A stretch of DNA of 64,000 nt, from NCBI GenBank assembly GCA_022729705.1, contig DZAX01000003.1, positions 17,214 to 81,213 of the forward strand, in the 5' to 3' direction. Each line of letters begins with the position of its first letter. The stretch's first letter is position 1. Under the pieces are notes generated by a model, which did not search any database, was not told the origin of the DNA, and was given only the letters and a program-made list of their open reading frames with translations. Both the position numbers and the translations under genes were made by a program. Source of the stretch: Helicobacter cetorum (GTDB lineage: Bacteria; Campylobacterota; Campylobacteria; Campylobacterales; UBA6016). Positions 35,768 through 52,761 of the stretch are shown here, one piece after another.

Positions 35768-35971
35768 TCCGCTTTACGCGCTTTTATATAAAATCCTCAT
35801 CATCCCGCATTTATGCGGGCGGCTTTAGCGAGACGCAAAAAACATTTATATTCCTATTGCCAATACAAGTAAACCCCATATTGGCGCATAGCGTCAGTAC
35901 TTCAAGACAAAAATAATCCTAATTAAAGTTTTCAGCTGTATAATCCTAAAAATTTAATTTGAAAGGTTTTT

Positions 35972-37135
35972 ATGGCAACCACAGACGAAATACGCTCCGC
36001 ATTGTCACAAGTGGCATACCCTGGTTTTACGAAAGACATCGTAAGCTTTGGTTTTGTAAAAAATATAGAGACGGGCGTTAAGCCTCGTATTGAGATTGAG
36101 ATAACGGCGAGTTCCGAAGAGATATCCTCTATATTGAAAGAAGATATCAAAAGCAAACTTTCTCTTATTGGAGTAAGTGATTTTGAACTTATATTAAACC
36201 AGCCGCAAACCCCAAGAGAGACCTCTTCAAAGGGTAAAAACATAGCTCCGTATATCAAAAACTTTATTATGGTAAGCTCAGGCAAAGGCGGCGTAGGCAA
36301 ATCCACGACAACGACAAATCTAGCGATAGCTCTTGCGATGCAGGGTAAAAAAATAGGCGTATTGGATGCGGATATATATGGTCCAAATATACCAAGGATG
36401 TTTGGCTTAACGGGAGCGCAACCGCAAGTTGAAGCAAATAGAGTAAAACCCGCTCACGCACTTGGTTGCGAGGTAATGAGCATGGGGATGCTGATGGAAG
36501 AGGGGCAATCTCTTATTTGGAGAGGGGCTATGATCATGAAAGTGATTCAGCAGCTGCTAACCGATATAGATTGGGGTGAACTAGACGCTCTTATTATCGA
36601 TATGCCTCCGGGCACAGGCGACGCTCAACTGACTTTAGCGCAAAGCGTGCCGGTTACCTGCGGCATAGTCGTCACAACTCCGCAAACGGTAGCGATTGAC
36701 GATGCAAAAAGAAGTCTTGATATGTTTGATAAGCTACATATTCCCCTCGGCGGTATAGTCGAAAATATGAGTGGCTTTATCTGTCCGGAAAGCGGCAAAG
36801 AGTATGATATTTTTGGCAAAGGCACCGCAACAGAGCTTGCAAAAGAGTACAAAACAACCGTTATCGCACAAATTCCTATCGAAGTAGACACTAGAAAAGG
36901 CGGAGACGAGGGTAGACCTATCACATATTACGCCCCGACATCAGAGAGCGCAAAAAGATTTCTTAAAGCGGCGGCGACTGTGTGGGCGAAGATAGAAGAG
37001 ATAAACAAAAACGGCGGAGCCTCAAACGAGACTATTCAACCAACAATAGGATTGGATGGCAAAACAAGTGCGTGCAGCTCCAGCGGCGGCGAAGAGTCAC
37101 ACTCGCACTCAGGCGGTGGTTGCGGTTGCAAATAA
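35972..37135 (+). CDS. apbC: Mrp/ApbC/NBP35-family Fe-S cluster carrier ATPase with a DUF59-like N-domain and a Cys/His-rich tail
   Basis: IRSALSQVAYPGFTKDIVSFGFV, deviant Walker A SSGKGGVGKSTTTTNLA. The tail is SACSSSGGEESHSHSGGGCGCK. Confidence 0.8.
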   Translation: MATTDEIRSALSQVAYPGFTKDIVSFGFVKNIETGVKPRIEIEITASSEEISSILKEDIKSKLSLIGVSDFELILNQPQTPRETSSKGKNIAPYIKNFIMVSSGKGGVGKSTTTTNLAIALAMQGKKIGVLDADIYGPNIPRMFGLTGAQPQVEANRVKPAHALGCEVMSMGMLMEEGQSLIWRGAMIMKVIQQLLTDIDWGELDALIIDMPPGTGDAQLTLAQSVPVTCGIVVTTPQTVAIDDAKRSLDMFDKLHIPLGGIVENMSGFICPESGKEYDIFGKGTATELAKEYKTTVIAQIPIEVDTRKGGDEGRPITYYAPTSESAKRFLKAAATVWAKIEEINKNGGASNETIQPTIGLDGKTSACSSSGGEESHSHSGGGCGCK

Positions 37136-37141
37136 AGCCAC

Positions 37142-37209
37142 TGATGTTATGCACAAGCACGAGCAAAGCCCGTGCTTGCGGCAGGGGCTATTCGCCCCTT
37201 GCATCCCCC
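37142..37209 (-). repeat. GC-rich multi-hairpin intergenic repeat, family A (inverted copy)
   Basis: The reverse complement GGGGGATGCAAGGGGCGAATAGCCCCTGCCGCAAGCACGGGCTTTGCTCGTGCTTGTGCATAACATCA aligns with 563..632. Confidence 0.75.
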
Positions 37210-37255
37210 TAAAGCTACCGGCTTCGCCGGAGAAATAAAATGCGCAAAGCAAAAT

Positions 37256-37328
37256 CTGCCGCAAATGCGGCTAGCTTCAGCAGCTCAGCGCCAGCGTAGC
37301 AACGGCGGGCTTTGCCCGTCGTTGCGTG
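37256..37328 (+). repeat. GC-rich multi-hairpin intergenic repeat, family B
   Basis: CTGCCGCAAATGCGGCTAGCTTCAGCAGCTCAGCGCCAGCGTAGCAACGGCGGGCTTTGCCCGTCGTTGCGTG aligns with 56740..56813 and with the reverse complement of 15271..15342. Confidence 0.75.
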
Positions 37329-37374
37329 CTACCCAGTATATTGTTCCAGCTCCAAACACCGTATTAAAATCATT

Positions 37375-37490
37375 TAGGGCACCTCTAAAAAACTATGTTT
37401 TTTCATAATGCGTTTAGTAGCAAAGCCAATGATTATAGGCTTTGTATAATTTTAAAAAGTGGAAAATGAGAGTTTTTAGAAGTGCCCTTA
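37375..37490. mobile_element. MITE-like element, second copy (slightly diverged inverted repeats)
   Basis: TTAGGGCACCTCTAAAAAAC...GTTTTTAGAAGTGCCCTTA. The interior is near-identical to 29691..29768. Confidence 0.7.
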
Positions 37491-37579
37491 ACATACTCAT
37501 AAATTTATCCAGCGCAGATTCTTTAACATCGATGGTTAGCAGCATCTTCGACCTCTTATTTGAAATTAATTTGCCTATA

Positions 37580-38398
37580 TTACAATAACGTCTCCACAAG
37601 CTCCCTTGCGATTTTCTGATAATGCTCTTTGCACTCCTCGTCGGCGTGCGCCACAGGCGGCATACCCTCGTCGCTAAGCTCTCTTATTTGCATCAAAAAC
37701 GGGATTTGTCCTAATAGTTTTATACCGTAGGTTTTGGCTAGCACTTCTCCGCCGCCGCTTCCGAAGATGTCGTATCTGATTTTTGTATCTGGAGCCACAA
37801 AGTAGCTCATATTTTCTACTATTCCGGCAATCGGCACTTTAATATCCTGAAACATCCGTATCGCGCGGCTCACGTCGTCGGTTGCCACGGCTTGCGGGGT
37901 TGTCACCAAAATACCCGCTGATATTTTCATCTCCTGAGCAGTGGTAAGCTGAATATCGCCCGTGCCAGGGGGCATATCGATGACAAAAAAATCAAGCTCT
38001 CCCCACTCTACGTCTTCTATTAGCTGTACAAGAGCGTTTACGGCGACAGAGCTCCTCCATACTAGCGGGGTGTCTGGGGTTGGGGTTGTGATACCTACCG
38101 ACATTATTTTTATTCCGTAGTTTTCGCTTGGGATTATCTTGTCGTTTGCGCTCCATTTGAGCGTTTCATCCCTGATATTGAGTAGTCTTGGAATGTCGGG
38201 ACCGTAGACGTCGGCGTCCAGTATTCCTACTCTTTTGCCCATTTGAGCTAGAGCCACAGCTAGATTTGCGCTAACGGAGCTTTTGCCTACGCCGCCTTTG
38301 CCGCTTGTGACGGCTATGACGTGTTTGGCGAATGAGGCTCTATTGTTTGGAGACTCAAATGTTCCGTAGGTTATTGGTTTTTTAGGAGATTGATTCAT
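37580..38398 (-). CDS. Second Mrp/ParA-type P-loop ATPase (short form, no DUF59 domain)
   Basis: VTSGKGGVGKSSVSANLAVALAQMGKRVGILDADVYGPDIPRLL, DMPPGTGDIQLT, 272 aa. Confidence 0.8.
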   Translation of the reverse strand: MNQSPKKPITYGTFESPNNRASFAKHVIAVTSGKGGVGKSSVSANLAVALAQMGKRVGILDADVYGPDIPRLLNIRDETLKWSANDKIIPSENYGIKIMSVGITTPTPDTPLVWRSSVAVNALVQLIEDVEWGELDFFVIDMPPGTGDIQLTTAQEMKISAGILVTTPQAVATDDVSRAIRMFQDIKVPIAGIVENMSYFVAPDTKIRYDIFGSGGGEVLAKTYGIKLLGQIPFLMQIRELSDEGMPPVAHADEECKEHYQKIARELVETLL

Positions 38399-38777
38399 TT
38401 TTTGCCTCTTTTATTGCATTTTCTATTTTTCTTAGCGCGCGTTTTGCTTTTATTTGCCACTCTTCTATTGGGTCTGCGGCTTTTTGAAATCTCGCCGCCA
38501 ACTCGTCATATATCGCGATTCTGGTGCTAAAAAGCTCTTTTATAAGCTCCAAAGCCTCTCCCATACGCCCCTCTTGTTTTGCTATTTTTAGTATTTCGCC
38601 AAACATTTTATGATTATCCGTCAGCTTTACCTCAACTCCCAGCTTCTCGGCGACGCCTCTTAGTTCAAAGGAGGAGATATAAACGCCGCTATAATCCGCC
38701 CCTAAAAGTTCGTACAGATAAAAACCAAAGGAGTTTGAGATTAAATTTTTATTATTATCATTAGCAATATCCATCAC
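38382..38777 (-). CDS. Hypothetical helical protein coupled to the short Mrp ATPase
   Basis: 131-aa ORF overlapping the downstream ATPase gene by 17 nt. No family recognised. Confidence 0.45.
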   Translation of the reverse strand: MMDIANDNNKNLISNSFGFYLYELLGADYSGVYISSFELRGVAEKLGVEVKLTDNHKMFGEILKIAKQEGRMGEALELIKELFSTRIAIYDELAARFQKAADPIEEWQIKAKRALRKIENAIKEAKNESIS

Positions 38778-39046
38778 AAGCCTTTTTTACTTTAATTTTA
38801 GCGCTTTTACATGATTTTATCTTAACCAAAAAAATATGAAAATACAAATCAAAATACGTTTCCAAGCTTTAAGTTCAACAATCAAACGCTTTTTTGAAAC
38901 AGCGCCGCTCTTTTGTTTTCAAATAAAAAATCATAATAACTTAGGTTGGTAAAATTAAGACTTCATTAAGATAAGTTTACATAGAATTTGTTTCTTTGCA
39001 AAAAAAGCAAAACGAATGGTTACAAAGATTAAAAAAAGGAGCGTTT

Positions 39047-39967
39047 ATGAGGAAGTTACTGGTGTCACTGTGTCTATTTTCTTCAGTTGCAATCAATTCC
39101 CTTTTAGCGGATAATATTACCATCTCCGCCAAAGAAGCAAAAGAGTTGCTAGGCAAACCCGGAGTTGTTTTCGTAAGCGGCGATAACGCCGATGTTTACA
39201 ACTTAAATCACGTCGAGGGTTCTGTAAATATGGACGCTCACCACCTTCACCATTCAGATATTACGGGGGATATGCACTGTGCGCCGCTTTATATGTGTCC
39301 GGACGAAGCTGAGAAATTTATCGGCTCAAAGGGCATTGACAATAATACTATGGTCGTAGCCTACGACGACTTTAAAGGTCCAAACGCTTCGGGCGTATGG
39401 CACTATTTCAAAAGCTTTGGGCATGACAACGTAAGATTTGTAAACGGCGGCATAGCGCAACTTAGAGCGGAGGGCGTAAAAATAGTAAAAGGAACGGAGC
39501 CTAAAGCGACTCCAAAAACTTTTAAAATAGACCCAAAAAAAATCAATCATAAAATGTCCGTAGATAAACATGAAGTGCTTAAAGCGGTAAAAGATATTGA
39601 AATTAACGGGGATAAGTCCAAATACGTCATTATAGATTCAAGAAGAATTGAAGAGATTATAGGCGTTTCAAAATTGGACAACGTAGCTAGAGGCGGACAT
39701 ATTCCAAACGCAAAATTTATAGAGTGGACGCATTTTAGCGACGCTACAAAAAAATTCTCTTACAAAACGCCCGAAGAGATGCAGGCTATTCTTGATAAAA
39801 ACGGCGTAACAAAAGATAAAATAATTTATACATATTGTCATGTTGGAGCCGGAAGAAGCTCCTATATTATGACTGTACTTGAAAAATTAGGCTATAAAAA
39901 CGCAAAGGTCTATGTCGGTTCTTGGGATGAGTGGGGCAATGACTGGAATATGCCGATAAGACGATGA
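39047..39967 (+). CDS. Periplasmic tandem-rhodanese sulfurtransferase
   Basis: The ATG at 39047 follows AAGGAG. Signal peptide MRKLLVSLCLFSSVAINSLLA, two rhodanese-like halves and the active-site loop YCHVGAGRSS. Confidence 0.8.
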   Translation: MRKLLVSLCLFSSVAINSLLADNITISAKEAKELLGKPGVVFVSGDNADVYNLNHVEGSVNMDAHHLHHSDITGDMHCAPLYMCPDEAEKFIGSKGIDNNTMVVAYDDFKGPNASGVWHYFKSFGHDNVRFVNGGIAQLRAEGVKIVKGTEPKATPKTFKIDPKKINHKMSVDKHEVLKAVKDIEINGDKSKYVIIDSRRIEEIIGVSKLDNVARGGHIPNAKFIEWTHFSDATKKFSYKTPEEMQAILDKNGVTKDKIIYTYCHVGAGRSSYIMTVLEKLGYKNAKVYVGSWDEWGNDWNMPIRR

Positions 39968-39981
39968 GGGAGAAAGTAACA

Positions 39982-42861
39982 ATGGTAAAAACAAGAAGAG
40001 ATTTTTTAAAAGCATCGGGTCTAACAGCGGCGCTTGTAGCGGGGCAGGGTTCGCTATTTGCAAAAACAAACGTTATGAAAGTGGAAAACGCTAAAGAGGC
40101 GTATCCAAATGCAAGTTTTACAGAAAACCTGTACAGAAACGAGTTTAACTTTACATACGGCAAAAAAGAGGAGCACGGTTTTGCATACCACTGCGTAAAC
40201 TGTCAAGGTAACTGCGCATGGGAAATCTGGTCAAACAACGGCGTGGTGACAAGGGAAAACCAATCCGCAAGATATCCGGTAATTAGTCCAAGCACGCCGG
40301 ATTTTAACCCAAGAGGCTGTAATAAGGGCGTGGAACACTCTCAGGTAATGTATGAAAAAGATAGAGTTCTATACCCAATGAAAAGAGTGGGCGCAAGGGG
40401 CGAGGGCAAATGGAAAAGAGTTAGCTGGGATGAGGCGACTACGGAAATAGCTCAAAAACTTTACGACAATATGATAGACCCTAAAAAAGGACCGGGAAGT
40501 ATCACGGTACACGCCGGAACAGGGCTTTTGACTGAGGGCAGAAGAGGCGGGCCTCTTAGATTTTCAACGCAACTAGGAGCGGTAAGAATCTATCCGGCTT
40601 CATATCTTGGCGATATGTTCTCAGGAGCCGCTGTGGCGTACGGCGAGGGCAACATGGGCTGTACATATGATTTTATGTATACGGTAAACGTGGCTATTAT
40701 GTGGGGCGCAAACCCATCTGCGACAAGAATTCCAGATGCGCACTTTGTATGGGAAGGCAAGTATAACGGCGCAAAAATCGTTGTAATTACCCCTGAATTT
40801 AACGCCTCAGCTTCAAGAGCTCATCTATGGGTGCCTATCAAGCCGGGTACGGACAACTATCTTGCAATGAGCGTCATTAACGAGCTAATCAGCAAAAAAC
40901 TATATATGCCGCAAGCAATCAAAACATATACAGACCTGCCTTTTCTTGTGAGAATGGATAACAAAAAACTTCTTAGAAGATCTGATTTTGAACATGCTAA
41001 AGATGAAAAAGAGCATCACAAATTTGACGAACAATTTTATACGTGGAATACAAAAACCTCATCTGTAGCCCTAATGCCCGGTTCTGAGGGAAGCGACCTG
41101 AAAAGCCTAAGACTAAAAGACAAAGGGTATGATATAGATCCTGCAATCGAAGGGGTTTGGGATGTAAAACTTCTTGATGGCAAAACTATAAAAGTAACAA
41201 CCGTATTTGAAATGTTAAAAGCCGAAGCGGCTAAGTTTCCGGCCGAGAAAACCCAGAAATTGACAAGCGTTCACCCATCAATCGTAGAAGAGCTTGCAAG
41301 AGACATAGCTAAAGAAAAAGTAGTTGAAATAACAACGGGCTTCTCGCTAAACAAATACTTCAACGGTATCCTAAATATCTGGAATATCGCTTCAATTTGC
41401 GGTCTAACGGGTAGATATGGTCCAAGAGGCGGTCTAAACACAGAAAATGAGTTTCAGCTATCAGGTCTTGAAACGCTTTCCGGTCACGCAGGCAAATACC
41501 AAGCTAGATTTGGCTCGGGATTTTTTGGCGAATTTATGTTTGGCAACGGTATGAAAGACTTTGATAAGTACTTCACCGATGCGGATCTAAAAAGAAGCCA
41601 AGGTATCGAGAAAAAAGAGTATAAAGCGATAATAGAGCAGATGGTAAAAGATGGCAAAGCATACGCCGCCGATCCAAAAGACGCAAAAAGAGCAAAACCT
41701 TTTTGGATGCCTGAAATCGCACTTTTGGTCGCCGACTCTAGATTTAGAAGAAACAAGGGTGTGAGCTATAGAGAAGAGTTTTTGAAACTTACTAAATACT
41801 TTGCGTATGTAGACTATAGAATGAGTGAAACGGCAATATACGCCGACATTTTGCTTCCGGCAAAATCACACTATGAAGTATTTGACCTTAGAAGCTCTCC
41901 AGGATACCATAGATTTACAAACCTTGCGCATCCTATCGCAAATATGAAACCTGTAGGAGAAGCGAAAGACGAGTGGAGCATATTTGAGATACTATCCAAA
42001 AAGCTTGAAGAGATAGCAAAAAAAGGTCCTGTTCAAAAAGTAAAAGACCCGAAATTTACAAGAGACGGCGTAAGGGAACTTGATAAGTTTCATCTCGAGT
42101 ATACAAACCACGACGAAGAGTCGGAGGGCAACCTTGAGCCTTATCTTGGAACCGACAAAATGGCTATTGAGGCGGCTCTTGACAAGTGCGAGCAGTATGC
42201 GCCTTATACGATAGAAAAGATGAAAAAATCGGGCGGCTTCTTGGTTTTAAACGAAAAAGCGGCAAAAACTTCTCCTCTTTATGCGGATAGACCGTTTAAC
42301 TCATGGGAAGACCAGATGTTCAAATTTGAGAGATTTGAGACTATGAGCGGTAGACAGACGTTTTATGTTGACCATGAGATGTGGATAAAGCTAGGTGCGA
42401 CGGTCAATACGGCTAGAGAAAATATCGCCCCTGTGACAAAATCATTTCCGTTTACAATGCTAACGCCTCACGCTAGATGGTCGATTCACGCCAACTACAA
42501 AAACTCTAAGTTTCTTATGAGACTCCAAAGAGGGAAGCCATGGATAGCGATAAACGATAAAGTCGCAAAAATAAAAGGAATTAAAGACGGCGACGACGTA
42601 AGAGTCTATAACAATCTTGGTCAATTCTTTGCAATGGCGAAAGTATCACACTCTGCGCCGATGGATTCACTAGTTATAGAAGACGGCTGGGAGCCGAATA
42701 TGTTTCGGGGAATGAGAGGACCAAACGATGTGGTGCCTACGTCTCTAAACCTACTTGAAATGGCGGACAACTGGGGACATCTCAAATTTGGCGGTCTTTG
42801 GGACGGTAACCAATACGCATACGACGCAGCCGTAAACATCGAAAAAGCTAAAAAAGCTTAA
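39982..42861 (+). CDS. Tat-exported molybdopterin oxidoreductase catalytic subunit, NarG/SerA/EbdA (type II DMSOR) clade, substrate unknown
   Basis: The ATG at 39982 follows GGGAG. Twin-arginine TRRDFLKASG and FS0 motif HCVNCQGNCAW-x30-RGC (H-x3-C-x3-C-x34-C). 959 aa. Confidence 0.85.
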   Translation: MVKTRRDFLKASGLTAALVAGQGSLFAKTNVMKVENAKEAYPNASFTENLYRNEFNFTYGKKEEHGFAYHCVNCQGNCAWEIWSNNGVVTRENQSARYPVISPSTPDFNPRGCNKGVEHSQVMYEKDRVLYPMKRVGARGEGKWKRVSWDEATTEIAQKLYDNMIDPKKGPGSITVHAGTGLLTEGRRGGPLRFSTQLGAVRIYPASYLGDMFSGAAVAYGEGNMGCTYDFMYTVNVAIMWGANPSATRIPDAHFVWEGKYNGAKIVVITPEFNASASRAHLWVPIKPGTDNYLAMSVINELISKKLYMPQAIKTYTDLPFLVRMDNKKLLRRSDFEHAKDEKEHHKFDEQFYTWNTKTSSVALMPGSEGSDLKSLRLKDKGYDIDPAIEGVWDVKLLDGKTIKVTTVFEMLKAEAAKFPAEKTQKLTSVHPSIVEELARDIAKEKVVEITTGFSLNKYFNGILNIWNIASICGLTGRYGPRGGLNTENEFQLSGLETLSGHAGKYQARFGSGFFGEFMFGNGMKDFDKYFTDADLKRSQGIEKKEYKAIIEQMVKDGKAYAADPKDAKRAKPFWMPEIALLVADSRFRRNKGVSYREEFLKLTKYFAYVDYRMSETAIYADILLPAKSHYEVFDLRSSPGYHRFTNLAHPIANMKPVGEAKDEWSIFEILSKKLEEIAKKGPVQKVKDPKFTRDGVRELDKFHLEYTNHDEESEGNLEPYLGTDKMAIEAALDKCEQYAPYTIEKMKKSGGFLVLNEKAAKTSPLYADRPFNSWEDQMFKFERFETMSGRQTFYVDHEMWIKLGATVNTARENIAPVTKSFPFTMLTPHARWSIHANYKNSKFLMRLQRGKPWIAINDKVAKIKGIKDGDDVRVYNNLGQFFAMAKVSHSAPMDSLVIEDGWEPNMFRGMRGPNDVVPTSLNLLEMADNWGHLKFGGLWDGNQYAYDAAVNIEKAKKA

Positions 42862-42876
42862 GGGGAGAAATTATAA

Positions 42877-43962
42877 ATGTCAGAAATGAAAGCACCAAAA
42901 AGACAGCTTGCAATGGTTATGGATCTCAATAAATGTATCGGCTGTCAAACTTGTACCGTAGCTTGTAAAACGCAGTGGACAAATAGAAACGGAAGAGATT
43001 ATATGTATTGGAATAACGTCGAAACATTCCCAGGAGAGGGGTATCCAAAACAGTGGAGAACCTCGGGTGGGGGTTTTGACAAAGAGGGCAATCTAAAAGA
43101 GGGGGTAATTCCTGAAATAGAGACGGGCTACGGCACTCCGTGGGATTTTAACCACGAAGATTTGGCAAAAGGCGTAGAGTTTAAGTCAAACGTCGCTCCT
43201 ATTTGGGGACCAAACTGGGATGAAGACCAAGGTGCGGGTGATTTCCCATCTGATAACTACTTCTTTTATATCCCAAGAATCTGCAACCACTGCGACAATC
43301 CGGGGTGTCTAGCGTCTTGTCCAAGAGACGCGATATTTAAGAGAACTCAAGACGGCGTTGTGCTTGTAGACCAAGAGAGATGTCAAGGTTATAGATTTTG
43401 TATAGCGGGTTGCCCTTACAAAAAAATCTACTTTAACCCAAAAATCTCAAAATCAGAAAAATGTATTTTCTGCTTTCCTAGGGTCGAAAAAGGGCTTCCA
43501 CCGGCGTGCGCGCAACAGTGCGTGGGCAGGATTAGATTTGTGGGCTTTTTGGATGATGAAGAGGGGCAAGTATACAAATTGGTCAAAAAATATAAAGTAG
43601 CTCTTCCTCTAACGCCGGAGGCGAATACGGGACCAAACGTGTACTATGTGCCGCCTATTGCGGGACCGCTTAAGTTTGACGCAAACGGCAAACCGATAGA
43701 GGGAAGCGACAGGGTTCCACCCGAGCAGCTAGAGGCGCTGTTTGGCAAAGAAGTTCACGCCGCCATTAAGACGCTAAACGATGAAATGGAAAAAAGAAAA
43801 GTAACCGGAAAATCTGAGCTTCTTGACCTTTTAATTGCGTACAAACATGCGGATATGTTTAGACTAGACGCCGGTTATTACGCACATCACAATAATTCGC
43901 TAAAACCGATAGACCATAGATATGACGCGGGCAAATTTACATCATTTAAGGCGGTGCACTAA
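42877..43962 (+). CDS. NarH/SerB/EbdB-like four-cluster Fe-S subunit
   Basis: CIGCQTCTVACK, YMYWNNVETFPG, CNHCDNPGCLASCP, CQGYRFCIAGCPYKKIYFN, CIFCFPRVEKGLPPACAQQC. No signal peptide (Tat hitch-hiker expected). Confidence 0.85.
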   Translation: MSEMKAPKRQLAMVMDLNKCIGCQTCTVACKTQWTNRNGRDYMYWNNVETFPGEGYPKQWRTSGGGFDKEGNLKEGVIPEIETGYGTPWDFNHEDLAKGVEFKSNVAPIWGPNWDEDQGAGDFPSDNYFFYIPRICNHCDNPGCLASCPRDAIFKRTQDGVVLVDQERCQGYRFCIAGCPYKKIYFNPKISKSEKCIFCFPRVEKGLPPACAQQCVGRIRFVGFLDDEEGQVYKLVKKYKVALPLTPEANTGPNVYYVPPIAGPLKFDANGKPIEGSDRVPPEQLEALFGKEVHAAIKTLNDEMEKRKVTGKSELLDLLIAYKHADMFRLDAGYYAHHNNSLKPIDHRYDAGKFTSFKAVH

Positions 43963-45134
43963 TGAATAAAACTGTTAAACTACTGACGCTAACGGCGCTT
44001 GCAGGCGTTAGCCTCGCCGCCGCCGATTATATTGGCGCCGCTAAAACGGATAAAATAGACGCTTCAAAAATAAAGCTTGAAAGCGTAACGCTATATCCGC
44101 AAACAACTATCGGCAACAACGATAAAGAGACTACGGCAAAAACAAAAGGGTTAAAAGCTCTTGAGGCAAAAGCGGGAGTCGCTTTTAACGATAAAGAGAT
44201 GGTAGTGGTTGTAAAATATAAAGACGACACAAACTCCAAACAGAGCCTAAAAAGCGTCAAAGCTTTTGGAGATGCGGTGGCTATTCAGTTTCCAACATCT
44301 TGTATGGAGACCGATAAGCTTCCTTATATAGGCATGGGAAGCGAAGGAAGAGCGGTAAGCGTGCTATTGCAAAAAAATGTGGAAGCCTTGTACCCCTCTA
44401 GTCAAAGCACCGATGTGACCATGCAGCAGGCGAGACAAAATCTAAACCTATTCGGCGATGATTTGAAGAAAAAAGAGGCGGCTCAGAAAGTTTTTGGTAA
44501 TGCAAAATACAACAAAGTGTTTGTTTCCGAGGGCTTTAGGACAATGACAGAGGTCAAAGACGCCAAAAATTACGAAATGTCTATGAGCTACAAAAGCGGC
44601 GAGTGGACGGCGGTGTTTAAAAAACCGCTTAACGACGAATACTCAAAAGCATGTGACGCAACCCCTATGGCTATAGCTATATGGGACGGAGCCAAAGACG
44701 GTAGAAACGGAACCAAATGGCTGTCAAACTGGACGCCTATCAATATGACGGGTAGTGCAAAAGCAAAAGCGGACATAGCAAAAATCACAGAAAAATCAAA
44801 AGGCAACGCTGCTAACGGCAAAAAACTAGCGGCTGATAATTGCGCAGCGTGCCATACAATGGGCGACGCGAAAGCTCCAATGGAAAATATGGCTCCCGAG
44901 CTTTCAAATATTGGCGGATACTCTACGGCGGCGTACCTAAAAGAGTCTATGACGGCTCCTAATGCGGCTATAGTTTTGGGGCATAACAAAAATGCGCATC
45001 CGGCGACTCCTTGGTATAACATAGACGACAAGGGCGTTAAAACTTCAACCATGCCGGCTTTTGATTATCTAAAACCCGCTGAATTAGATGATATAGTGGC
45101 GTATCTACAAACTCTAAAGACGGGGGTAAAGTAA
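43962..45134 (+). CDS. Periplasmic heme subunit: EB_dh/SerC-like heme b domain fused to a C-terminal mono-heme c-type cytochrome
   Basis: Sec signal MNKTVKLLTLTALAGVSLAAA. FGDAVAIQFP...LPYIGMGSEG...DGRNGTKWLSNW resembles EB_dh. The C-terminal DNCAACHTMGD is a CxxCH heme c site. Confidence 0.7.
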   Translation: MNKTVKLLTLTALAGVSLAAADYIGAAKTDKIDASKIKLESVTLYPQTTIGNNDKETTAKTKGLKALEAKAGVAFNDKEMVVVVKYKDDTNSKQSLKSVKAFGDAVAIQFPTSCMETDKLPYIGMGSEGRAVSVLLQKNVEALYPSSQSTDVTMQQARQNLNLFGDDLKKKEAAQKVFGNAKYNKVFVSEGFRTMTEVKDAKNYEMSMSYKSGEWTAVFKKPLNDEYSKACDATPMAIAIWDGAKDGRNGTKWLSNWTPINMTGSAKAKADIAKITEKSKGNAANGKKLAADNCAACHTMGDAKAPMENMAPELSNIGGYSTAAYLKESMTAPNAAIVLGHNKNAHPATPWYNIDDKGVKTSTMPAFDYLKPAELDDIVAYLQTLKTGVK

Positions 45135-45135
45135 C

Positions 45136-45522
45136 ATGAAAAAGCTGTTCTTGTCATCAATATTTGCGGTTTTCGCCGCAACTTCTTCTTTTTGCGCCAC
45201 AGAAGTCAAAGATGCGGCGCCAATGGCGGGAGAGGTGGAGAAAAAGGGATTTTTGGTTACTGAAGAGTGCGTAAAAAAAGGCTATTTCAAAGATTGTAGG
45301 CTAGACACCACAGCTACAAGTCCGATGGCTTTATATGTTCACTCCGAGGGCACTATGTACAGACTTGATGCGGCGGGCATATCTATGCATGAACTAGACG
45401 AGGGTTTTGGTAAAAACAACATAACCGTCATAGGAAAGCTAGAAAAAGACAATACAATTAAAATCAGAGCCTACAAAGCTCCGCCTCCTGAGGGTAAATC
45501 CTTTTTTAAAGGTTGTTTATAA
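45136..45522 (+). CDS. Small periplasmic protein of the molybdoenzyme operon
   Basis: 128 aa, signal MKKLFLSSIFAVFAATSSFCA. The start is 1 nt after the upstream stop. No family recognised. Confidence 0.5.
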   Translation: MKKLFLSSIFAVFAATSSFCATEVKDAAPMAGEVEKKGFLVTEECVKKGYFKDCRLDTTATSPMALYVHSEGTMYRLDAAGISMHELDEGFGKNNITVIGKLEKDNTIKIRAYKAPPPEGKSFFKGCL

Positions 45523-45531
45523 TGCAACGTA

Positions 45532-45580
45532 GCCGCAAGAAACTTTGCCTCTTGCGGCAAATTTAATTTTTATTTTTTAT
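45532..45580 (+). terminator. Hairpin plus T-rich tract after the structural genes
   Basis: GCCGCAAGA-AACTTTGCC-TCTTGCGGC followed by AAATTTAATTTTTATTTTTT. Confidence 0.45.
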
Positions 45581-45598
45581 CCTCTAAGGTTTTTATCT

Positions 45599-46153
45599 AT
45601 GGACAACAAACAACGAGCTTTCATATACGCTTTTCTTTCAACGGTTTTTTCTGATAAACTCTCAAAAAAGAGCATTCAAGATTTGAAAGATAACCCTGAT
45701 TTTTTAGATTTAATTGGAGAAAATGCAAGAAAATTTTTTGATGATAACGACGTGGAGACGCTTGATGAAGAGCTAAATATAGACTTCACAAGCGCATTTT
45801 TGGCAAATTCACATCCGGCGGAGTCTTCTATCATGGATGCAAAATATCAAATATCGACCGGTCTTGAGAATCCGGTAATGAATTTTTATATAGGCAACGG
45901 TTTTGATATAAACCTCAATAATACAAATCTTCTCACCCCCGACCATATAGCGATAGAGCTTGGTTTTATGCAAAATCTAACGCTTGGAGAGGATGTCCAA
46001 ACGCAAAAAGAGTTTATGAAAAAACATATCCTAAAATGGATGGTACCATATTTTTTAGGAGCCAAAACGCTTGTGGAGACCCCTTTTTATCTTGACTTTT
46101 TGGATTTTGCGACAGAGTTTTTGCTTTCCGACTACGAGTCTTTGAGTGTCTAA
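45599..46153 (+). CDS. TorD/NarJ/DmsD-family redox-enzyme maturation chaperone
   Basis: Start at MDNKQRAFIYAFLSTVFS. NIDFTSAFL...HPAESS...FYIGNGFD...LTPDHIAIELGFMQNL...FMKKHILKWM is the family pattern. Confidence 0.75.
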   Translation: MDNKQRAFIYAFLSTVFSDKLSKKSIQDLKDNPDFLDLIGENARKFFDDNDVETLDEELNIDFTSAFLANSHPAESSIMDAKYQISTGLENPVMNFYIGNGFDINLNNTNLLTPDHIAIELGFMQNLTLGEDVQTQKEFMKKHILKWMVPYFLGAKTLVETPFYLDFLDFATEFLLSDYESLSV

Positions 46154-47216
46154 TTTTGCGCTCTTTATCGAGCCGCTAAAGTGTCTAAGAAACGACTACG
46201 CCGCAAATGAGTGCATAATCTGCGCGGATGTATGCCCCGAGAAAGCTATAACCGTAAAAAGAAATAAAATAACCTTTGAAGAAAATCTCTGTACTCTCTG
46301 CCACGCTTGTGTCGGCGTTTGCCCCACAGAAGCCGTGGAAAGCGAAAAATTTGAACCAAATATTTTTATCGCAAAAGAGATTAGCATTGAAAATAACGAG
46401 CTAAAACAAAAACTTCTCAGCAATAATCTAAAACTCTCCTGCAAGGAACTTGGCGTCTGCCTAAGCGTATTTGACGAATCACATCTAATTACGCTCGCCC
46501 TTAAAAGCGCGCGTAAAATAAGCGTCGACATTAGTCCGTGCGCCGAATGCGACTTAAACAAAGAGTCCAAACTAAAAAATGCGATAGACCTTTCGCTGGG
46601 AGTCGCAAATAGCTTTTTGGAAGAGTTTGCAAATAAAAATATCGAAATTGTCTCTCAAAAAGCGGCGGATAGAAGAAACTTTTTTAAGACGATACTAAAA
46701 CGCTCCGTTAACGCTATAGAGGAGTATGAAGAAAAACCTCAAAAGCCAAAGACAAAACTGCCGCTAAAAAGAATACTGCTCAAAAACGCCATAAAAGACG
46801 CGCTTGAGGAGACAAACAGATTTGTCCAAAACGACTACCCGTTTAGCGTCTCAAAGACAATTGATAAGAACTGCACAAACTGCAAAGCGTGCGTCGAGTT
46901 TTGCCCGACAAACGCACTTTTTTACTCAAACGACTTCTCAAAAATCTACTTCCAAAGCGGAAAATGCGTCTCTTGTGACATCTGCAACGATATATGCGCC
47001 CCAAAATCATTTACGGACGGCTTTGAGCGCGATATGTCGATGTTTGCTTTTGACAAAGCGAGCGCGGTTATAGAACACAACCTCATAATTTGCCGCTCCT
47101 GTAAGCTAGCCTTTTCATCAAAAGAGGGCGAAGAGATATGCCCGCAATGTGAAGAGTACAACAATGACTTTGCGTATATGTTTGTGACCGCCGAGGAGTT
47201 GGAGAGAGGGGTGTAG
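46146..47216 (+). CDS. Cytoplasmic poly-ferredoxin (NapF-like) with a C-terminal Cys4 ribbon
   Basis: Four clusters of the CxxCxxCxxxCP type (CIICADVCP, CTLCHACVGVCP, CTNCKACVEFCP, CVSCDICNDICAP) plus CRSC...CPQC. GTG start overlapping the chaperone stop. Confidence 0.75.
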   Translation: MSNFALFIEPLKCLRNDYAANECIICADVCPEKAITVKRNKITFEENLCTLCHACVGVCPTEAVESEKFEPNIFIAKEISIENNELKQKLLSNNLKLSCKELGVCLSVFDESHLITLALKSARKISVDISPCAECDLNKESKLKNAIDLSLGVANSFLEEFANKNIEIVSQKAADRRNFFKTILKRSVNAIEEYEEKPQKPKTKLPLKRILLKNAIKDALEETNRFVQNDYPFSVSKTIDKNCTNCKACVEFCPTNALFYSNDFSKIYFQSGKCVSCDICNDICAPKSFTDGFERDMSMFAFDKASAVIEHNLIICRSCKLAFSSKEGEEICPQCEEYNNDFAYMFVTAEELERGV

Positions 47217-47245
47217 CCCCTTTTGTAGTTCAAGGCTTTATTGCA

Positions 47246-47277
47246 GGGAACTTCTAAAAACCTCTTTTAGAACTCCC
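47246..47277. repeat. Short hairpin related to the MITE inverted repeats (GGGAACTTCTAAAAAC / TTTTAGAACTCCC)
   Basis: Lies 30 nt after the ferredoxin stop. The arms resemble GGGCACCTCTAAAAAC of the 29670 and 37375 elements. It may act as a terminator. Confidence 0.5.
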
Positions 47278-47324
47278 AACCCTCCCTTTTCTCGATTTTA
47301 AAAAAATCTTATTTCAATTCTTAT

Positions 47325-47345
47325 TGACTCATCTTTCGCACCTAT
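47325..47345 (-). repeat. Dispersed motif (A)TAGGTGCGAAAGATGAGTCA (copy 3, inverted)
   Basis: The reverse complement matches copies at 475 and 4332 except near the 3' end. The ATG is followed by AGT CAA TAA. Confidence 0.75.
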
Positions 47346-47421
47346 CTAGGAGAATAGGTGACTATAATGTGGTGAAACTGGGCACATATATCATTTTCTA
47401 TTTTATTTGATATAATGAAAT

Positions 47422-48630: not shown

Positions 48631-49215
48631 CTACAAACAAACCACCCCCTCACCCCCAAGCAAAGCCTCCACCGTATCGAGCGCATTACCCACCTTACCC
48701 ACCATAAGACTACCTTGAAGCCCATAAAACTCCAAACAAGCCCCGCACGAATATATCTCCACGCCATCATTTTCAAGTTTTTTCAGAGTCTTTGCCACAT
48801 CTGCGCACTCCGCTTTTGCCGTCAAAAACACGCCGCTGTTTACGAAGATGATTTTTTGCGGTTTTTGGGTTGCGCTTAGCATGGCGGTCAAAAATCCTCG
48901 TATTAGCTTTGCGCCTAACTCCTCGTTGTCGCCTATGTGGTCGCTTTTGACAAAGACTACTTTTCGCCCCGTGTTTTGGGCGGGTTTTATCTCGCATTTG
49001 TAGCCTTTTACCGCCGTTATGATGTATTCGCCGTTATCTGTGTTTTTGATGTCCGGTTCCAAGCCGCTTTGGCGCAAAAATCTGCATACGTTTTCTTTTG
49101 AGATTTCGCTATTTAGGAGTATCTCAAATACCCCCTCCTCGCCCAAGGCTTCTACGCCCTCTTTTGTCATGATTACCGGTTTTGGGCATTCCATGTCTCT
49201 TGCGTCTATTTTCAT
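48631..49215 (-). CDS. yedF: YedF-type selenium-metabolism protein (TusA/SirA-like N-domain plus DsrE-like C-domain)
   Basis: Start at MKIDARDMECPKPV (CPxP motif) after an AGGAGAG RBS. The C-terminal half is ...IIFVNSGVFL...VEIYSCGACLEFYG. It is adjacent to selB/selA. Confidence 0.7.
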   Translation of the reverse strand: MKIDARDMECPKPVIMTKEGVEALGEEGVFEILLNSEISKENVCRFLRQSGLEPDIKNTDNGEYIITAVKGYKCEIKPAQNTGRKVVFVKSDHIGDNEELGAKLIRGFLTAMLSATQKPQKIIFVNSGVFLTAKAECADVAKTLKKLENDGVEIYSCGACLEFYGLQGSLMVGKVGNALDTVEALLGGEGVVCL

Positions 49216-49363
49216 CTTTTCTCTCCTTGTACATTGTATTGATGTTATGCGCCAAAACGAACTCGTCCGTTTTGGCGGCAAGGACATAAATGTCCCTGCA
49301 CCCCCTACTAAAGCTACGAAAACTTTCGTTTTCGAGAATTATATGGGTTTTTACGCTCTTTTT

Positions 49364-51211
49364 TTACAAAAGTGCGTAAGATTGGTTAAAAACTCTTTTT
49401 TGCTCTATATTTTCGATGTCATCCCATCTATCTAGGTACTCCAGATAGTTTATCGCGTATTTGCGACTTATGCCAAGAGCCTCTTTGACGCTTGCGACGG
49501 TTGCAAATCCATCTTTTTGTATTAGCGTTCTTATCTCTTGGAGTACGGCTTGAAGCGATTTTGCGCTTATGAAGTGGTTGTGCGCTAGGCGGACGGCTTT
49601 TTGTGAAGAGCAGAGTTTTTTTAGGATTTCGTCGCCAAAAGCTCTGTCTATATCTAGTTTGTCATAGATGTTGTAAGGAGCCTCCGGCATAAAATCACTA
49701 CTCTCAAGAGCCGCCAAGACTATATCTGTAAGCTCTTTGCACAAATCTCTATTTTTGTTTTCAGTCAAGGAGTATAAACCGTTGTTTGAGGTGATGACTC
49801 CCTCGGCTTCTAGCTGTGCAAAAGCGATTTGGGCTAGGTACTCGCTAGCCCATGAGAGCTTTTGTTTTACGGATTTTGGTGCCAGAAGTGCGGCGGGATT
49901 TTTGGCGTATATCTTTTTTAGCTCTAGCGCCAAAGCGTCCAGCGAGTTTTGCGGATATAGTACCTTATCTTTTTCATCTACGATTACGCCATCCATACCG
50001 CTCGCTATTTCAAGAGCCTCGGCATACCCTATCCCAAAACGTTGTTCTGAGCAGATTAGCCCAAATCCTGTTTTGTGTGCGCTCATCAGTGCCGCAAAAG
50101 CTTTTTTCAGCTCCTTTTTCTCCAGCGCCGCCAAAAGAGCCTCTCGCTGACTCTTTTTGAGAGGATCCGCCACCACTCCTATCGCTACGCCTCCGCCCAC
50201 TGTGTGAGATGAGTTTCTTAGCACAAAAGGCTCGCCGTAGACCAAAAACATATTTTTATCAAACTTCAGAGTCGCCGTTATTCGCCCTTCATCTTCGCTT
50301 ATTACAAACACTCTGCAGGCAGCCGCGTCGGCGCCAAAAAAAGCGGTTAGTTCGCTTAGGTGTTTTACGTTTGTCTCCGGCTTTTTGTGGATTACGACAT
50401 CTATGTCTTTAAATCCCCTCATAAACCCTTTTTTGGTGAGGAGCATCCCTTTTTTGATTTCGTTGTGGCTTACGTCTGATAGATTTATCGCCGTTCTCTG
50501 TCCTTGCGTCGCCTTATCCACCGTTTTGTTGTGAGTCTGTATCGAGCGCGCTTTGACGCTTTTTTGGATTTGGGGGATGTACAGGGGCTCTTTTGCGCTT
50601 ATCTCTCCGTCTAGTAGCGTACCTGTGACGACGCACCCCGCACCTGCCACGCTAAACACTCTGTCGATATAGAGTCTTGCCAATCTATTTGTCTGCGCGG
50701 GTTTGCTTTTTAGAGAGAAGAGATAGTTTTTTAGCTCCTCTTTTTGCTCTTTTTTTTTGACACTAAAGGGAAGTATGGAGAGCAAGCTTAGATTTTTGTA
50801 CTCGCCCAAAAACTCTATCGTCTCCGACTTTCTGCGCTCCATCGTCTCCTCATCCGCCAAATCAGATTTGCTCAAAACCGCTATCACACCCAGAGATTTT
50901 ATCGAATCCAAAATCAGCAAATGTTCGCGCGTCTGCTCCTTTGCCCCCTCGTTTACGTCTATCACGATAAGCACATAGTCAAACCCAAAAGCACCGCCAA
51001 TCATCGTCTTTACAAGCTTCTCATGCCCCGGCACATCGATAAAAGAGATTTCATTATCCCCGTCATCCATCGACGAAAAAGATAGCTCTATCGTAATCCC
51101 CCGTCGCTTCTCCTCGGGTGTAGCGTCTCCCTCAAAGCCTGTTAGCTCTTTTATTATCGTCGTTTTGCCGTGGTCTATGTGTCCGGCGGTTCCTATGATT
51201 ACTCTATTCAT
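49364..51211 (-). CDS. selB: Selenocysteine-specific translation elongation factor SelB
   Basis: GTPase motifs GHIDHGKTT, DVPGHEK, SKSD. 615 aa with a long winged-helix-type C-terminal extension. The start overlaps the selA stop. Confidence 0.88.
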   Translation of the reverse strand: MNRVIIGTAGHIDHGKTTIIKELTGFEGDATPEEKRRGITIELSFSSMDDGDNEISFIDVPGHEKLVKTMIGGAFGFDYVLIVIDVNEGAKEQTREHLLILDSIKSLGVIAVLSKSDLADEETMERRKSETIEFLGEYKNLSLLSILPFSVKKKEQKEELKNYLFSLKSKPAQTNRLARLYIDRVFSVAGAGCVVTGTLLDGEISAKEPLYIPQIQKSVKARSIQTHNKTVDKATQGQRTAINLSDVSHNEIKKGMLLTKKGFMRGFKDIDVVIHKKPETNVKHLSELTAFFGADAAACRVFVISEDEGRITATLKFDKNMFLVYGEPFVLRNSSHTVGGGVAIGVVADPLKKSQREALLAALEKKELKKAFAALMSAHKTGFGLICSEQRFGIGYAEALEIASGMDGVIVDEKDKVLYPQNSLDALALELKKIYAKNPAALLAPKSVKQKLSWASEYLAQIAFAQLEAEGVITSNNGLYSLTENKNRDLCKELTDIVLAALESSDFMPEAPYNIYDKLDIDRAFGDEILKKLCSSQKAVRLAHNHFISAKSLQAVLQEIRTLIQKDGFATVASVKEALGISRKYAINYLEYLDRWDDIENIEQKRVFNQSYALL

Positions 51212-52539
51212 AGCGCAAGAGAGTTTAATAGCCTTGTCACGCTCTCTATGTCGTCCTCCATGATAGTGCGAACGTCAAGTAGTACGCTCTCATCTTCCAC
51301 TCTAGCAATTACGCCGCCCTCTCTCAGCGCTTTTATGAGTTTTTGCGGTTTTTCGCGCGAGATGATACGAATCGCCACAGAGCCTATCTTCTCCTCAGGC
51401 AGAGAGCCGCCGCCCACATACGCAGCGACTTTTACTATCTCAAACTTTGATTTATCATCTAGCTTTTCCATCATATCAGACGCTTTTTGTGTTAACTCTT
51501 TATCATCCATGCTTAACATCCCAATAGCCGGAATATTGCGCTTATCGCCAAAGGCGTATTCGAGCATCGTCTGCTCCACAATCGCAAGGGTGAGTTTATC
51601 GCATCGAAGCATTCTAAGAAGCTGATTTTTTTTGAGCTTGTCGATAAGAGCTTTTTTGCCTAGAATTATCCCCGCCTGAGTTGCGCCAAAGAGCTTATCG
51701 GCACTAAAACTCACAATTGAGGGCGAGCTTTTGAGAATCTCATAAATATCCGCCTCTTTGTTGGCAAACTCCATCTTGCTCTTAGTCAAATTCGCACTTC
51801 CAAGGTCATAATAATCAATAAGTCCCTTGTCTTTGGCAAGCCCCGCAATATCCTCAAACGCAACCTCTTCGACAAAGCCGTTTATCGTGAAGTTTGACCT
51901 ATGCACTTTCATCAGTACTCTTGTCTTTTCGCTTATGGCGTTTTCATAATCAGCTAGCCTTGTTTTGTTGGTGGCGCCGACCTCTTTTAGCTTTGCGCCG
52001 CTGTTTGCCATCACCTCGGGAATCCTAAAACCGCCGCCTATCTCTACAAGCTCGCCTCTGGAGACCACGCACTCTTTGTTTTTTGCAAAAGTGTTTAATA
52101 CCAAAAACACAGCCGCCGCATTGTTGTTGACAAGCAGTATATCCTCGCATCCAAACAAGAATTTTGCAAGCTTTGTCAAGTGTCCGTATCTATCGTCTCT
52201 TTTGCCTAGCCTCGCGTTATACTCCAGATTTGAGTAGCCAGACGAACACAAAGAGGCGTATTCAAGCGCTTTTTTTGAGATTGGCGCCCTGCCTAAGTTT
52301 GTGTGAATGACAACCCCTGTCGCATTGATTAGAGGTCTAAAAGTAGGCGTTAAAAGAGCTTCGTATCGCTTGATTATTTCAGACTCTATATCGCTGGCGT
52401 CAAGCGAAGTAGCGCCCTCTCGGATTTCATCTAGCAAGCTTTTTGCAATCTTTTTCACAGACTCCGTATTTAGCCCCTCAAACCTCTTTGATTCTAGTAG
52501 TTTGCCTATCTGCGGCAATTTTTTTAGCTCTTCACTCAT
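51208..52539 (-). CDS. selA: L-seryl-tRNA(Sec) selenium transferase SelA
   Basis: 443 aa. The PLP-lysine region VSFSADKLFGATQAGIILGKK parallels the SelA FSGDKLLGGPQAG motif. Confidence 0.88.
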   Translation of the reverse strand: MSEELKKLPQIGKLLESKRFEGLNTESVKKIAKSLLDEIREGATSLDASDIESEIIKRYEALLTPTFRPLINATGVVIHTNLGRAPISKKALEYASLCSSGYSNLEYNARLGKRDDRYGHLTKLAKFLFGCEDILLVNNNAAAVFLVLNTFAKNKECVVSRGELVEIGGGFRIPEVMANSGAKLKEVGATNKTRLADYENAISEKTRVLMKVHRSNFTINGFVEEVAFEDIAGLAKDKGLIDYYDLGSANLTKSKMEFANKEADIYEILKSSPSIVSFSADKLFGATQAGIILGKKALIDKLKKNQLLRMLRCDKLTLAIVEQTMLEYAFGDKRNIPAIGMLSMDDKELTQKASDMMEKLDDKSKFEIVKVAAYVGGGSLPEEKIGSVAIRIISREKPQKLIKALREGGVIARVEDESVLLDVRTIMEDDIESVTRLLNSLAL

Positions 52540-52584
52540 TGCTTTAAGTCTCGTCTAGTTAAAATATACTTTACTTTTACCATT

Positions 52585-52645: not shown

Positions 52646-52660
52646 GCTTGCCGCTCTTTT

Positions 52661-52759: not shown

Positions 52760-52761
52760 AT

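Follow-up and report, generated by a model that had tools for sequence, protein, structure and literature searches.

The soluble type II molybdoenzymes Ebd, Ser, Clr, and Ddh possess a gamma subunit (EbdC, solved as 2ivf chain C, SerC, ClrC, and DdhC, respectively) of about 210–240 aa, which binds heme b only, and they interact with separate soluble cytochromes c (PMC3578206, PMC8840923). In EbdC, heme b has an unusual Met/Lys ligation and a midpoint potential (Em) of +256 mV (+324 mV in Ddh), and cytochrome c is its probable natural electron partner (PMC8840923). Here, we describe a related gamma subunit, encoded in a 64,000-nucleotide stretch of contig DZAX01000003.1 (assembly GCA_022729705.1, Helicobacter cetorum; hereafter the window), in which the heme b (EB_dh) domain is fused to a class I cytochrome c domain of 100 aa. 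Like the EbdC group, gamma is predicted to be a Sec-exported, soluble EB_dh beta-sandwich that keeps the Met and Lys positions, and it is expected to work at cytochrome c potential, while its identity to the members of this group is about 14–18% in structural alignment.

The fusion had been pointed out in an earlier note made from the DNA letters alone, which had also correctly described the heme-b-only gamma and the separate cytochrome c of the characterized enzymes. The finding is real and was correctly read, but it is less unusual than that note supposed, and the enzyme system around it is the more interesting object. It differs from the characterized enzymes; it is neither rare nor unprecedented, since it is standard in a large family (see below) and a comparable combination has been predicted in Nitrospina gracilis, in which Lucker et al. 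(2013) proposed gamma-like proteins with a heme b domain and 1–3 heme c sites (PMC3578206). These predicted proteins, alt_NxrC2–4, are the published precedent for heme b plus heme c; they have 1–3 CxxCH sites, some are membrane-bound, they are encoded outside the nxrAB operons, and they are likened to gamma here by description only.

Domain Architecture of the Gamma Subunit

The gamma subunit gene is located at 43962–45134 on the forward strand, exactly where the earlier note had placed it, and encodes a heme b (EB_dh) and cytochrome c fusion of 390 aa according to the open reading frame (ORF) call, Pfam, and an AlphaFold2 (AF2) model. Its ATG start overlaps the stop codon of the beta subunit gene (TAATG). 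Residues 1–21 (43962–44024, +) were read as a Sec-type signal peptide with probable cleavage after AAA. The N-terminus, MNKTVKLLTLTALAGVSLAAA|DY, looks Sec-like by eye, with MNKTVK, a hydrophobic core, and AAA|D, and residues 1–18 are disordered in the AF2 model (predicted local distance difference test, pLDDT, <50).

The EB_dh heme b domain, delimited by Pfam, profile, and Foldseek results, spans residues 24–261 (44031–44744, +), within which residues 34–251 match PF09459 at 58.6 bits against a gathering score of 33.3 (E = 1.2e-15). Next comes a linker (residues 262–282; 44745–44807, +) that is conserved and in part helical, as judged from a helix at 266–275 in the model and from the alignment of 37 fusions. 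The C-terminal part is a class I mono-heme cytochrome c domain (residues 283–386; 44808–45119, +), which is matched by both Cytochrom_C and Cytochrome_CBB3 of Pfam; the Cytochrom_C match covers residues 283–386 at 53.1 bits against a gathering score of 21.3 (E = 8.5e-14), and the PDB sequence and profile matches of this part are c552, c2, and a diheme protein. The two-domain layout given in the earlier note, namely an EB_dh-like N-terminal part and a C-terminal part with a single CxxCH, is thus borne out by the profile searches, and all three motifs that it quoted are present.

The AF2 model of the 390-aa protein, built on 37 homologs, has a mean pLDDT of 82.5 and a predicted template modeling score (pTM) of 0.81, the latter suggesting a defined packing of the heme b and cytochrome c domains. 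Foldseek placed the N-terminal domain among EbdC/NxrC-like beta-sandwiches (NxrC 7b04, 9e-14; EbdC 2ivf_C, 5e-13; probability 1.00) and the C-terminal domain with the cytochrome c domains 2yev_B and SoxX 2oz1_B. A profile built from the 37 homologs matched the same two proteins (NxrC, 1.8e-13; EbdC, 3.1e-13). NxrC of Kuenenia stuttgartiensis (7b04 chain C) is therefore the best structural and profile match of the N-terminal domain, and the Lys of its G-x-K motif is aligned with that of gamma. However, NxrC has no fused cytochrome c, and the alpha subunit of the present system is 965 aa rather than about 1150 aa in length and does not carry the signature of a nitrate/nitrite Mo-site.

The EB_dh domain also contains a Cys pair, residues 114 and 231 (44301–44303 and 44652–44654), which is near-universal in the closer clade (P0001–P0040, about 47% identity or more; missing from P0038) and is not found in fusions at a greater distance; the pair may form a disulfide specific to this lineage. 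Two ORFs are present on the opposite strand within the gamma gene, at 44588–45052 (−, 154 aa) and 44027–44260 (−, 77 aa), and are most likely spurious because the sense frame is strongly conserved.

Proposed Heme Ligands and Their Conservation

Conservation in gamma was assessed in a close alignment of 37 fusions, 41–90% identical to the query, and in a distant set of 90 full-length representatives, 22–57% identical to it. Met125 (44334–44336, +), which sits in LPYIGMG, and Lys252 (44715–44717, +), which sits in GTKWLSNW, are the proposed axial ligands of heme b, and were already the candidates in the earlier note. Both are invariant in the close alignment, and they are kept in 75/90 and 81/90 distant representatives, respectively. 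Through HMMER coordinates, they fall on residues 108 and 201 of EbdC, which are reportedly the heme b ligands of that protein (Kloer et al. 2006), and Lys252 falls on the Lys of NxrC as well.

In the cytochrome c domain, the heme c attachment motif CAACH (Cys294/Cys297/His298; 44841–44855, +) is present in all 90 distant representatives, as is Met364 of the sequence STMP (45051–45053, +). The query has a single CxxCH, located at residue 294, and each of the 120 listed homologs likewise has just one, in the equivalent place. The residues Cys294, Cys297, His298, Met310, and Met364 are, like Met125 and Lys252, invariant among the 37 fusions, while Met310 is kept in only 36/90 of the distant set. 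Met364 rather than Met310 is thus proposed as the sixth ligand of heme c, because it is retained in 90/90 and is aligned with the Met of GTKMAF in c552 8ed4_I.

Reality and Distribution of the Fusion

The fusion might in principle be an annotation or assembly artefact, with two neighboring genes merged, in one assembly, through the loss of a stop codon or an error in sequencing. However, five contigs from independent assemblies (two NCBI metagenome-assembled genomes (MAGs), a Joint Genome Institute (JGI) metagenome, and a Logan assembly), with 99.7–100% nucleotide identity to the window, each encode exactly this 390-aa protein in one gene, and relatives with as little as 41% identity retain the linker between the two domains. 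A frameshift or stop separating two genes, which the earlier note had named as an alternative, and an assembly artefact were ruled out on this basis. The domain order is also the same in all 120 listed homologs and in 107/150 best representatives. Nothing was found in favor of an artefact; one protein without the cytochrome c part, P0350 (327 aa), has its end precisely at the linker, and its locus is rearranged and retains no cytochrome c remnant. The probability of this explanation is accordingly negligible.

The fusion is widely distributed. In a database clustered at 90% identity, 557 gamma clusters were found at E <= 1e-5, mostly from Campylobacterota; nearly all of the best 120 are 389–423 aa in length with both domains, and the named sources among these are Campylobacterales, Sulfuricurvum, Nitrosophilus, and one 'Malikia' MAG. 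An exhaustive HMMER search of 1.84 billion representatives at 50% identity gave 113 matches at E <= 1e-30, and the layout of EB_dh followed by a single-CxxCH cytochrome c was present in 107 of the best 150 representatives. Another combination of heme b and heme c, in which a C-terminal EB_dh domain is preceded by two CxxCH sites, was present in 10 of these 150. No clean split of the heme b and cytochrome c parts was found among the relatives examined, which, together with the wide spread, indicates that the fusion arose long ago and is the rule in the gamma-cytochrome c family.

The proteins with two CxxCH sites and a C-terminal EB_dh domain are 465–755 aa in length (P0441, P0444, P0448, P0454, P0457–P0459, P0466, P0467, and P0470). 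One gamma, at locus L020, was considered as a split relative and set aside, as it is without both the Met and the Lys and belongs to a degenerate paralogue with a 770-aa alpha. A divergent EB_dh-like and cytochrome c protein of 346 aa (P0436) follows a DUF3373 gene with no molybdoenzyme nearby (L018, 6485–9041); a DUF3373 gene is also present upstream of the operon in Nitrosophilus alvini (L013, 1–1515). In the 'Malikia sp.' contig (L014), the operon and the genes downstream of it, DUF6781, DUF493, and moaC, correspond to those of a Sulfuricurvum locus (L015), at 74% nucleotide identity, and this synteny suggests that the contig may belong to Campylobacterota and have been mis-binned, and that it may not represent a copy in a betaproteobacterium. 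A scan of contigs with one protein yielded eight close MAG loci and covered these alone, not a broad taxonomic range.

The earlier note had mentioned a similar arrangement in a perchlorate-reduction island of Arcobacter, but the published description of that island does not bear this out. The island of Arcobacter sp. CAB comprises pcrABD, cld, transposases, and a separate 'c-type monoheme cytochrome' (CAB_00027520), which resembles cytochromes encoded in other Arcobacter genomes, and the text of the CAB paper makes no mention of EB_dh. According to Melnyk 2015, some perchlorate islands carry pcrO, an EbdC homolog; between them, that study and the CAB paper mention only a mono-heme cytochrome c and pcrO. 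No precedent of the fusion was mentioned in the CAB paper, in Melnyk 2015, or in the A. butzleri genome paper.

Catalytic Subunits and Enzyme Class

The gamma gene belongs to an operon with the genes of an alpha and a beta subunit. The alpha subunit (39964–42861, +, with a possible alternative start at 39982), a 965-aa catalytic subunit of the type in which molybdenum is bound by two pyranopterin guanosine dinucleotides (Mo-bisPGD), assigned through TIGR03479 and its PcrA/EbdA matches, carries the twin-arginine translocation (Tat) motif TRRDFLK for export and the FS0 motif H76-x3-C-x3-C plus further Cys. Its Asp217 occupies the position of the Mo ligand and is aligned to D170 of PcrA and D223 of EbdA. 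Among solved relatives, PcrA (7e-115) and EbdA (8e-92) are well ahead of NarG and NxrA. The 361-aa beta subunit (42877–43962, +), with four Fe-S clusters, matches TIGR03478 at 506.8 bits, above the cut-off of 480.7. Orthologs of alpha with 65–92% identity occur in Nitrosophilus, Sulfurospirillum arcachonense, Sulfuricurvum, Sulfurovaceae, and Sulfurimonadaceae, and none of them has a functional name.

The NarG/NxrA-type Mo-site for nitrate and nitrite has the signature Y-4x-D-11x-Q[N/M] (PMC6050957), while the alpha site reads [A/S]-4x-D-11x-GN in 120/121 orthologs; an identity as nitrate reductase or nitrite oxidoreductase was rejected for want of this signature. The closest solved relative of alpha, PcrAB of Azospira (4ydd, 5e7o), is likewise periplasmic, has an Asp-ligated Mo, and has a c-type cytochrome partner, which in its case, PcrC, is a tetraheme protein unrelated to gamma. 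One might accordingly regard the present enzyme as a perchlorate reductase variant with the fused gamma in place of PcrC, since PcrA is the top PDB match of alpha and the island of strain CAB is without pcrC and carries a mono-heme cytochrome c instead. This is nevertheless highly improbable. The gate residues of PcrA are F164, Y165, and W461 (PMC6650914), whereas alpha has Pro211, Ala212, and Glu, the W461 position lying in a gappy region of the alignment. Moreover, neither a chlorite dismutase gene (cld) nor a multiheme protein was matched among the 48 ORFs scanned across the window, the locus belongs to the core chromosome near dnaA with no transposases, and an EB_dh domain goes unmentioned for the CAB island. 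A perchlorate reductase identity was therefore rejected on the gate residues and the lack of cld in the window.

Judged by these alignments, the host enzyme is a type II molybdoenzyme of a family with no characterized member. Nothing on the clade of alpha was found in a search for DdhA, SerA, or ClrA in the literature on Sulfurimonas and Sulfurovum and in a MopB phylogeny paper, and a literature search found no paper on this Campylobacterota enzyme.

Rhodanese and Cysteine-Tailed Small Protein

The order of the operon is rhodanese, alpha, beta, gamma-cytochrome c, a protein of 128–140 aa, a TorD-like chaperone, and a polyferredoxin, with junctions that overlap or nearly abut. This order is kept in Nitrosophilus alvini, in Sulfuricurvum, and in eight other Campylobacterales MAG loci (L005–L012). 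The first gene (39047–39967, +) encodes a periplasmic tandem-domain rhodanese (two Pfam Rhodanese stretches) with a signal peptide and the active-site loop CHVGAGR, and its stop overlaps the alpha start (ATGA). Its closest solved structure is 1uar (1.2e-24), to which the catalytic Cys is aligned, and its nearest solved relatives are thiosulfate sulfurtransferases. Its best NCBIfam match is a generic sulfurtransferase, and ExtH, which comes from an operon for selenite/tellurite reduction, matches it weakly (E = 3.7e-11). Its N-terminal, non-catalytic domain has a conserved HHLHH...HCAPLYMCP motif, and in the rhodaneses of Nitrosophilus and Sulfuricurvum the two domains are separated by an inserted stretch of about 65 aa that is rich in Lys and resembles a coiled coil.

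The gene directly after gamma, a position that it always occupies, encodes a secreted OB-fold-like protein of 128 aa (45136–45522, +), which ends in KSFFKGCL (45496–45519, with Cys127). The tail, KSFFKGC[L/M]-COOH after a PPP stretch, is present in 83/83 homologs of this small protein, in which two further Cys, C45 and C54, are also invariant. The protein has no Pfam, NCBIfam, or PDB sequence match. Its AF2 model (pLDDT 71) shows an OB-like beta domain with an unstructured tail, and the Foldseek matches are weak and to OB-folds only, all with E > 0.01. A SoxY-like fold is not supported by this OB-like result. A Cys on a flexible C-terminal arm is nonetheless shared with SoxY and DsrC, with no similarity in sequence or fold. 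SoxY ends in GGCGG and DsrC in PTGCV.

A related locus occurs in a lineage of 68% guanine-plus-cytosine content (L017), whose alpha is 52% identical and in which the genes for Sulf_transp, a 66-aa protein, a rhodanese, alpha, beta, gamma-cytochrome c (484 aa), and a 149-aa protein stand in this order. Here, the small protein (8350–8799) ends in GSFKGCL and a single-domain rhodanese-fold protein (2313–2789) ends in SGGGGGCL, so that the G-C-L tail is found on two different accessory proteins. This rhodanese-fold protein has Ser at the expected catalytic Cys, and a Sulf_transp (YeeE/YedE) gene lies just upstream of it. The rhodanese and the Cys-tailed protein together suggest, tentatively, that the substrate is sulfur or selenium bound to a carrier.

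The small protein might instead serve as a periplasmic cofactor chaperone, for example delivering heme b to the Sec-exported gamma in analogy to CcmE, in which case the rhodanese would be unrelated to the substrate. CcmE (8ce8_E, 1sr3) is among the weak Foldseek OB-fold matches; it is an OB-fold protein with a functional C-terminal tail, and the route of heme b to Sec-exported EB_dh domains is not well understood. We consider this improbable, as all of the OB-fold matches are weak (E > 0.01) and generic, a distant fusion locus (L016) is without the small protein, and the characterized EB_dh enzymes are not known to need such a protein. The presence of the same GCL tail on the rhodanese-fold protein of L017 suggests that a sulfur relay fits better than heme delivery.

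Proposed Electron Path and Direction of the Reaction

Gamma probably acts as a two-heme relay between the Fe-S chain and the high-potential cytochrome network of the periplasm, the fused heme c replacing a diffusible partner. After Sec export, we infer that two hemes would be bound, heme b non-covalently and heme c covalently. Heme b would lie in the EB_dh beta-sandwich, with Met125 and Lys252 as its ligands, an arrangement like that of ethylbenzene dehydrogenase, and heme c in the C-terminal domain, held by Cys294, Cys297, His298, and Met364. Electrons would then pass, in either direction, along a path from the Asp217-ligated Mo-bisPGD through FS0, the four Fe-S clusters of beta, and heme b to heme c. 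In this way, heme c would stand in for the diffusible cytochrome c that is needed by the unfused Ebd, Ddh, Ser, and Clr, and the enzyme would plug directly into the network of high-potential cytochromes c (bc1, cbb3 oxidase, and periplasmic N-oxide reductases). The covalent fusion can thus reasonably be supposed to hard-wire the enzyme to the periplasmic cytochrome pool, as the earlier note had suggested.

Some points weigh against this assignment. Met125 is substituted in 15/90 distant representatives, although some of these cases are perhaps alignment errors. The best NCBIfam match of gamma, TIGR03477 ('DMSO reductase family type II enzyme, heme b subunit'), reaches 67.6 bits, below the trusted cut-off of 169.85, and alpha likewise scores 792.8 bits against TIGR03479, below its trusted cut-off of 984.75. 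On these profile scores, gamma is a divergent member of the wider EB_dh Pfam family, outside the curated TIGR03477 subfamily.

As to the direction, we tentatively lean, short of even confidence, towards a dehydrogenase that would act on sulfur (or selenium) species supplied by the rhodanese and the Cys-tailed protein, with electrons leaving via heme c. This lean comes from the sulfur-transfer accessories and from the cytochrome c potential, which would be too high for the reduction of low-potential sulfur acceptors. It is in line with the translational coupling to alpha of a rhodanese with an intact catalytic Cys, and with the Cys tail that is invariant in 83/83 and that, in the high-GC lineage, is borne by the small protein as well as by the rhodanese-fold protein. 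Sulfur-related neighbors of the operon also speak for it, including a YeeE-type Sulf_transp gene in L017, soxZ in L015, and a TusA-DsrE fusion in the window. Several observations count on the other side. Cultured carriers such as Nitrosophilus and Hydrogenimonas are hydrogen oxidizers, and the OB-like fold of the small protein is neither that of SoxY nor that of DsrC. The rhodanese genes that are up-regulated on S0 in S. indicum precede rho and gdhA, not the genes of this enzyme, and the cluster is not mentioned in the papers on sulfur disproportionation or in that on Sulfurovum MH2-6. Ser and Clr, which are characterized reductases, also draw electrons from cytochrome c (PMC3578206).

The last point bears on the principal rival, a respiratory reductase whose substrate is an oxyanion of high potential, such as selenate, tellurate, chlorate, or iodate; in this case, heme c would be the entry of electrons from the bc1/cytochrome c pool and the rhodanese and the Cys-tailed protein would handle a toxic or reactive product, such as selenite. 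The best solved relative of alpha, PcrA (7e-115), is a reductase, and the EB_dh-type gammas of the characterized Ser and Clr are fed by soluble cytochromes c (PMC3578206). The ExtH match of the rhodanese (E = 3.7e-11) and the YeeE/YedE-type transporter of L017 would also suit such a function. Cytochrome c4 is the electron donor of Thauera SerABC, and the cultured carriers include hydrogen oxidizers with several acceptors. We nevertheless regard this rival as rather doubtful, in that none of the three PcrA gate residues, no cld in the window, and no nitrate-type signature were found, ExtH was outscored by a generic sulfurtransferase, and a literature search linked no carrier organism to selenate or chlorate respiration.

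Returning to the dehydrogenase, the operon may even constitute a periplasmic module for sulfur (or selenium) oxidation that is undescribed but widespread in Campylobacterota and also present in at least one high-GC lineage. In such a module, the rhodanese would load sulfane sulfur onto the Cys arm of the carrier, the Mo-bisPGD enzyme would oxidize it, and gamma would pass the electrons to the cytochrome c pool, which would make it a Mo-bisPGD analogue of SoxCD/SoxY. SoxCD is likewise a periplasmic molybdoenzyme with a c-type cytochrome as the electron outlet, but the analogy is functional only, since SoxC belongs to the sulfite oxidase family and not to the Mo-bisPGD family of alpha. In this complete form the proposal is speculative, and we hold it to be unlikely.

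Genomic Setting of the Operon

Downstream of the small protein, the operon continues with a TorD/NarJ-type maturation chaperone (45545–46153, +), which is matched by Pfam Nitrate_red_del and by TorD and TIGR03482 of NCBIfam, and whose start is uncertain (in L001 it has 184 aa from 45599). The conserved last gene encodes a NapF/EFR1-like polyferredoxin of 356 aa (46146–47216, +; Pfam/NCBIfam), which is probably cytoplasmic, with a likely role in maturation or electron transfer. A Pfam scan of the operon ORFs revealed no membrane-anchor gene. Scans for promoters and terminators remained at chance level.

A divergent pair at 37580–38777 (−) consists of a NUBPL/Mrp-type Fe-S carrier ATPase (37580–38398; Pfam ParA/NUBPL, 312 bits) and a 130-aa protein (38382–38777), both possibly accessory to the enzyme. 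In tblastn searches, the ATPase adjoined the operon in L005–L012 and in Nitrosophilus alvini, and the 130-aa protein was present only in L005–L012. An NBP35-like gene has been reported beside the Nitrotoga nxr operon. A second NUBPL/Mrp-type ATPase is encoded further upstream at 35972–37135 (+). Upstream of the operon, the window contains moaE and two NUBPL-type ATPases, and the locus is part of the core chromosome.

Directly downstream of the operon, a TusA-DsrE fusion is followed by a complete selenocysteine cluster of selB, selA, tRNA-Sec, and a selD-like AIRS gene (48631–53739, −; 52661–52755, +). The genes gyrB, dnaN, and dnaA at 54391–59397 (−) indicate that the window takes in the region of the chromosomal replication origin. 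The MAG contig L001 is 99.94% identical to the window over 33962–47381 and beyond that point has genes for Cu-oxidase and OEP where the window has the pentapeptide, TusA-DsrE, and sel genes, whereas L003 is collinear with the window to 47733; the divergence of L001 at 47381 is either a strain-level rearrangement or the mark of a chimeric MAG contig. A 114-bp intergenic repeat occurs at 37375–37488 and 29673–29785 with 94% identity and has no tRNA or Rfam match.

Implications

The fusion is a 'Rosetta stone' that supports electron exchange between the exposed Met/Lys heme b of soluble type II molybdoenzymes and a class I cytochrome c, and it offers a ready model of the electron-transfer interface between heme b and cytochrome c within one polypeptide. 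It also marks a large and well-conserved molybdoenzyme family without a characterized member in sulfur- and hydrogen-oxidizing Campylobacterota, bacteria that occur in large numbers in sulfidic, subsurface, and hydrothermal habitats. This family is mislabeled by automatic annotation as 'ethylbenzene dehydrogenase-related' or 'nitrate reductase / nitrite oxidoreductase'. Identification of its substrate could supply a reaction that is missing from models of how these bacteria cycle sulfur or selenium.

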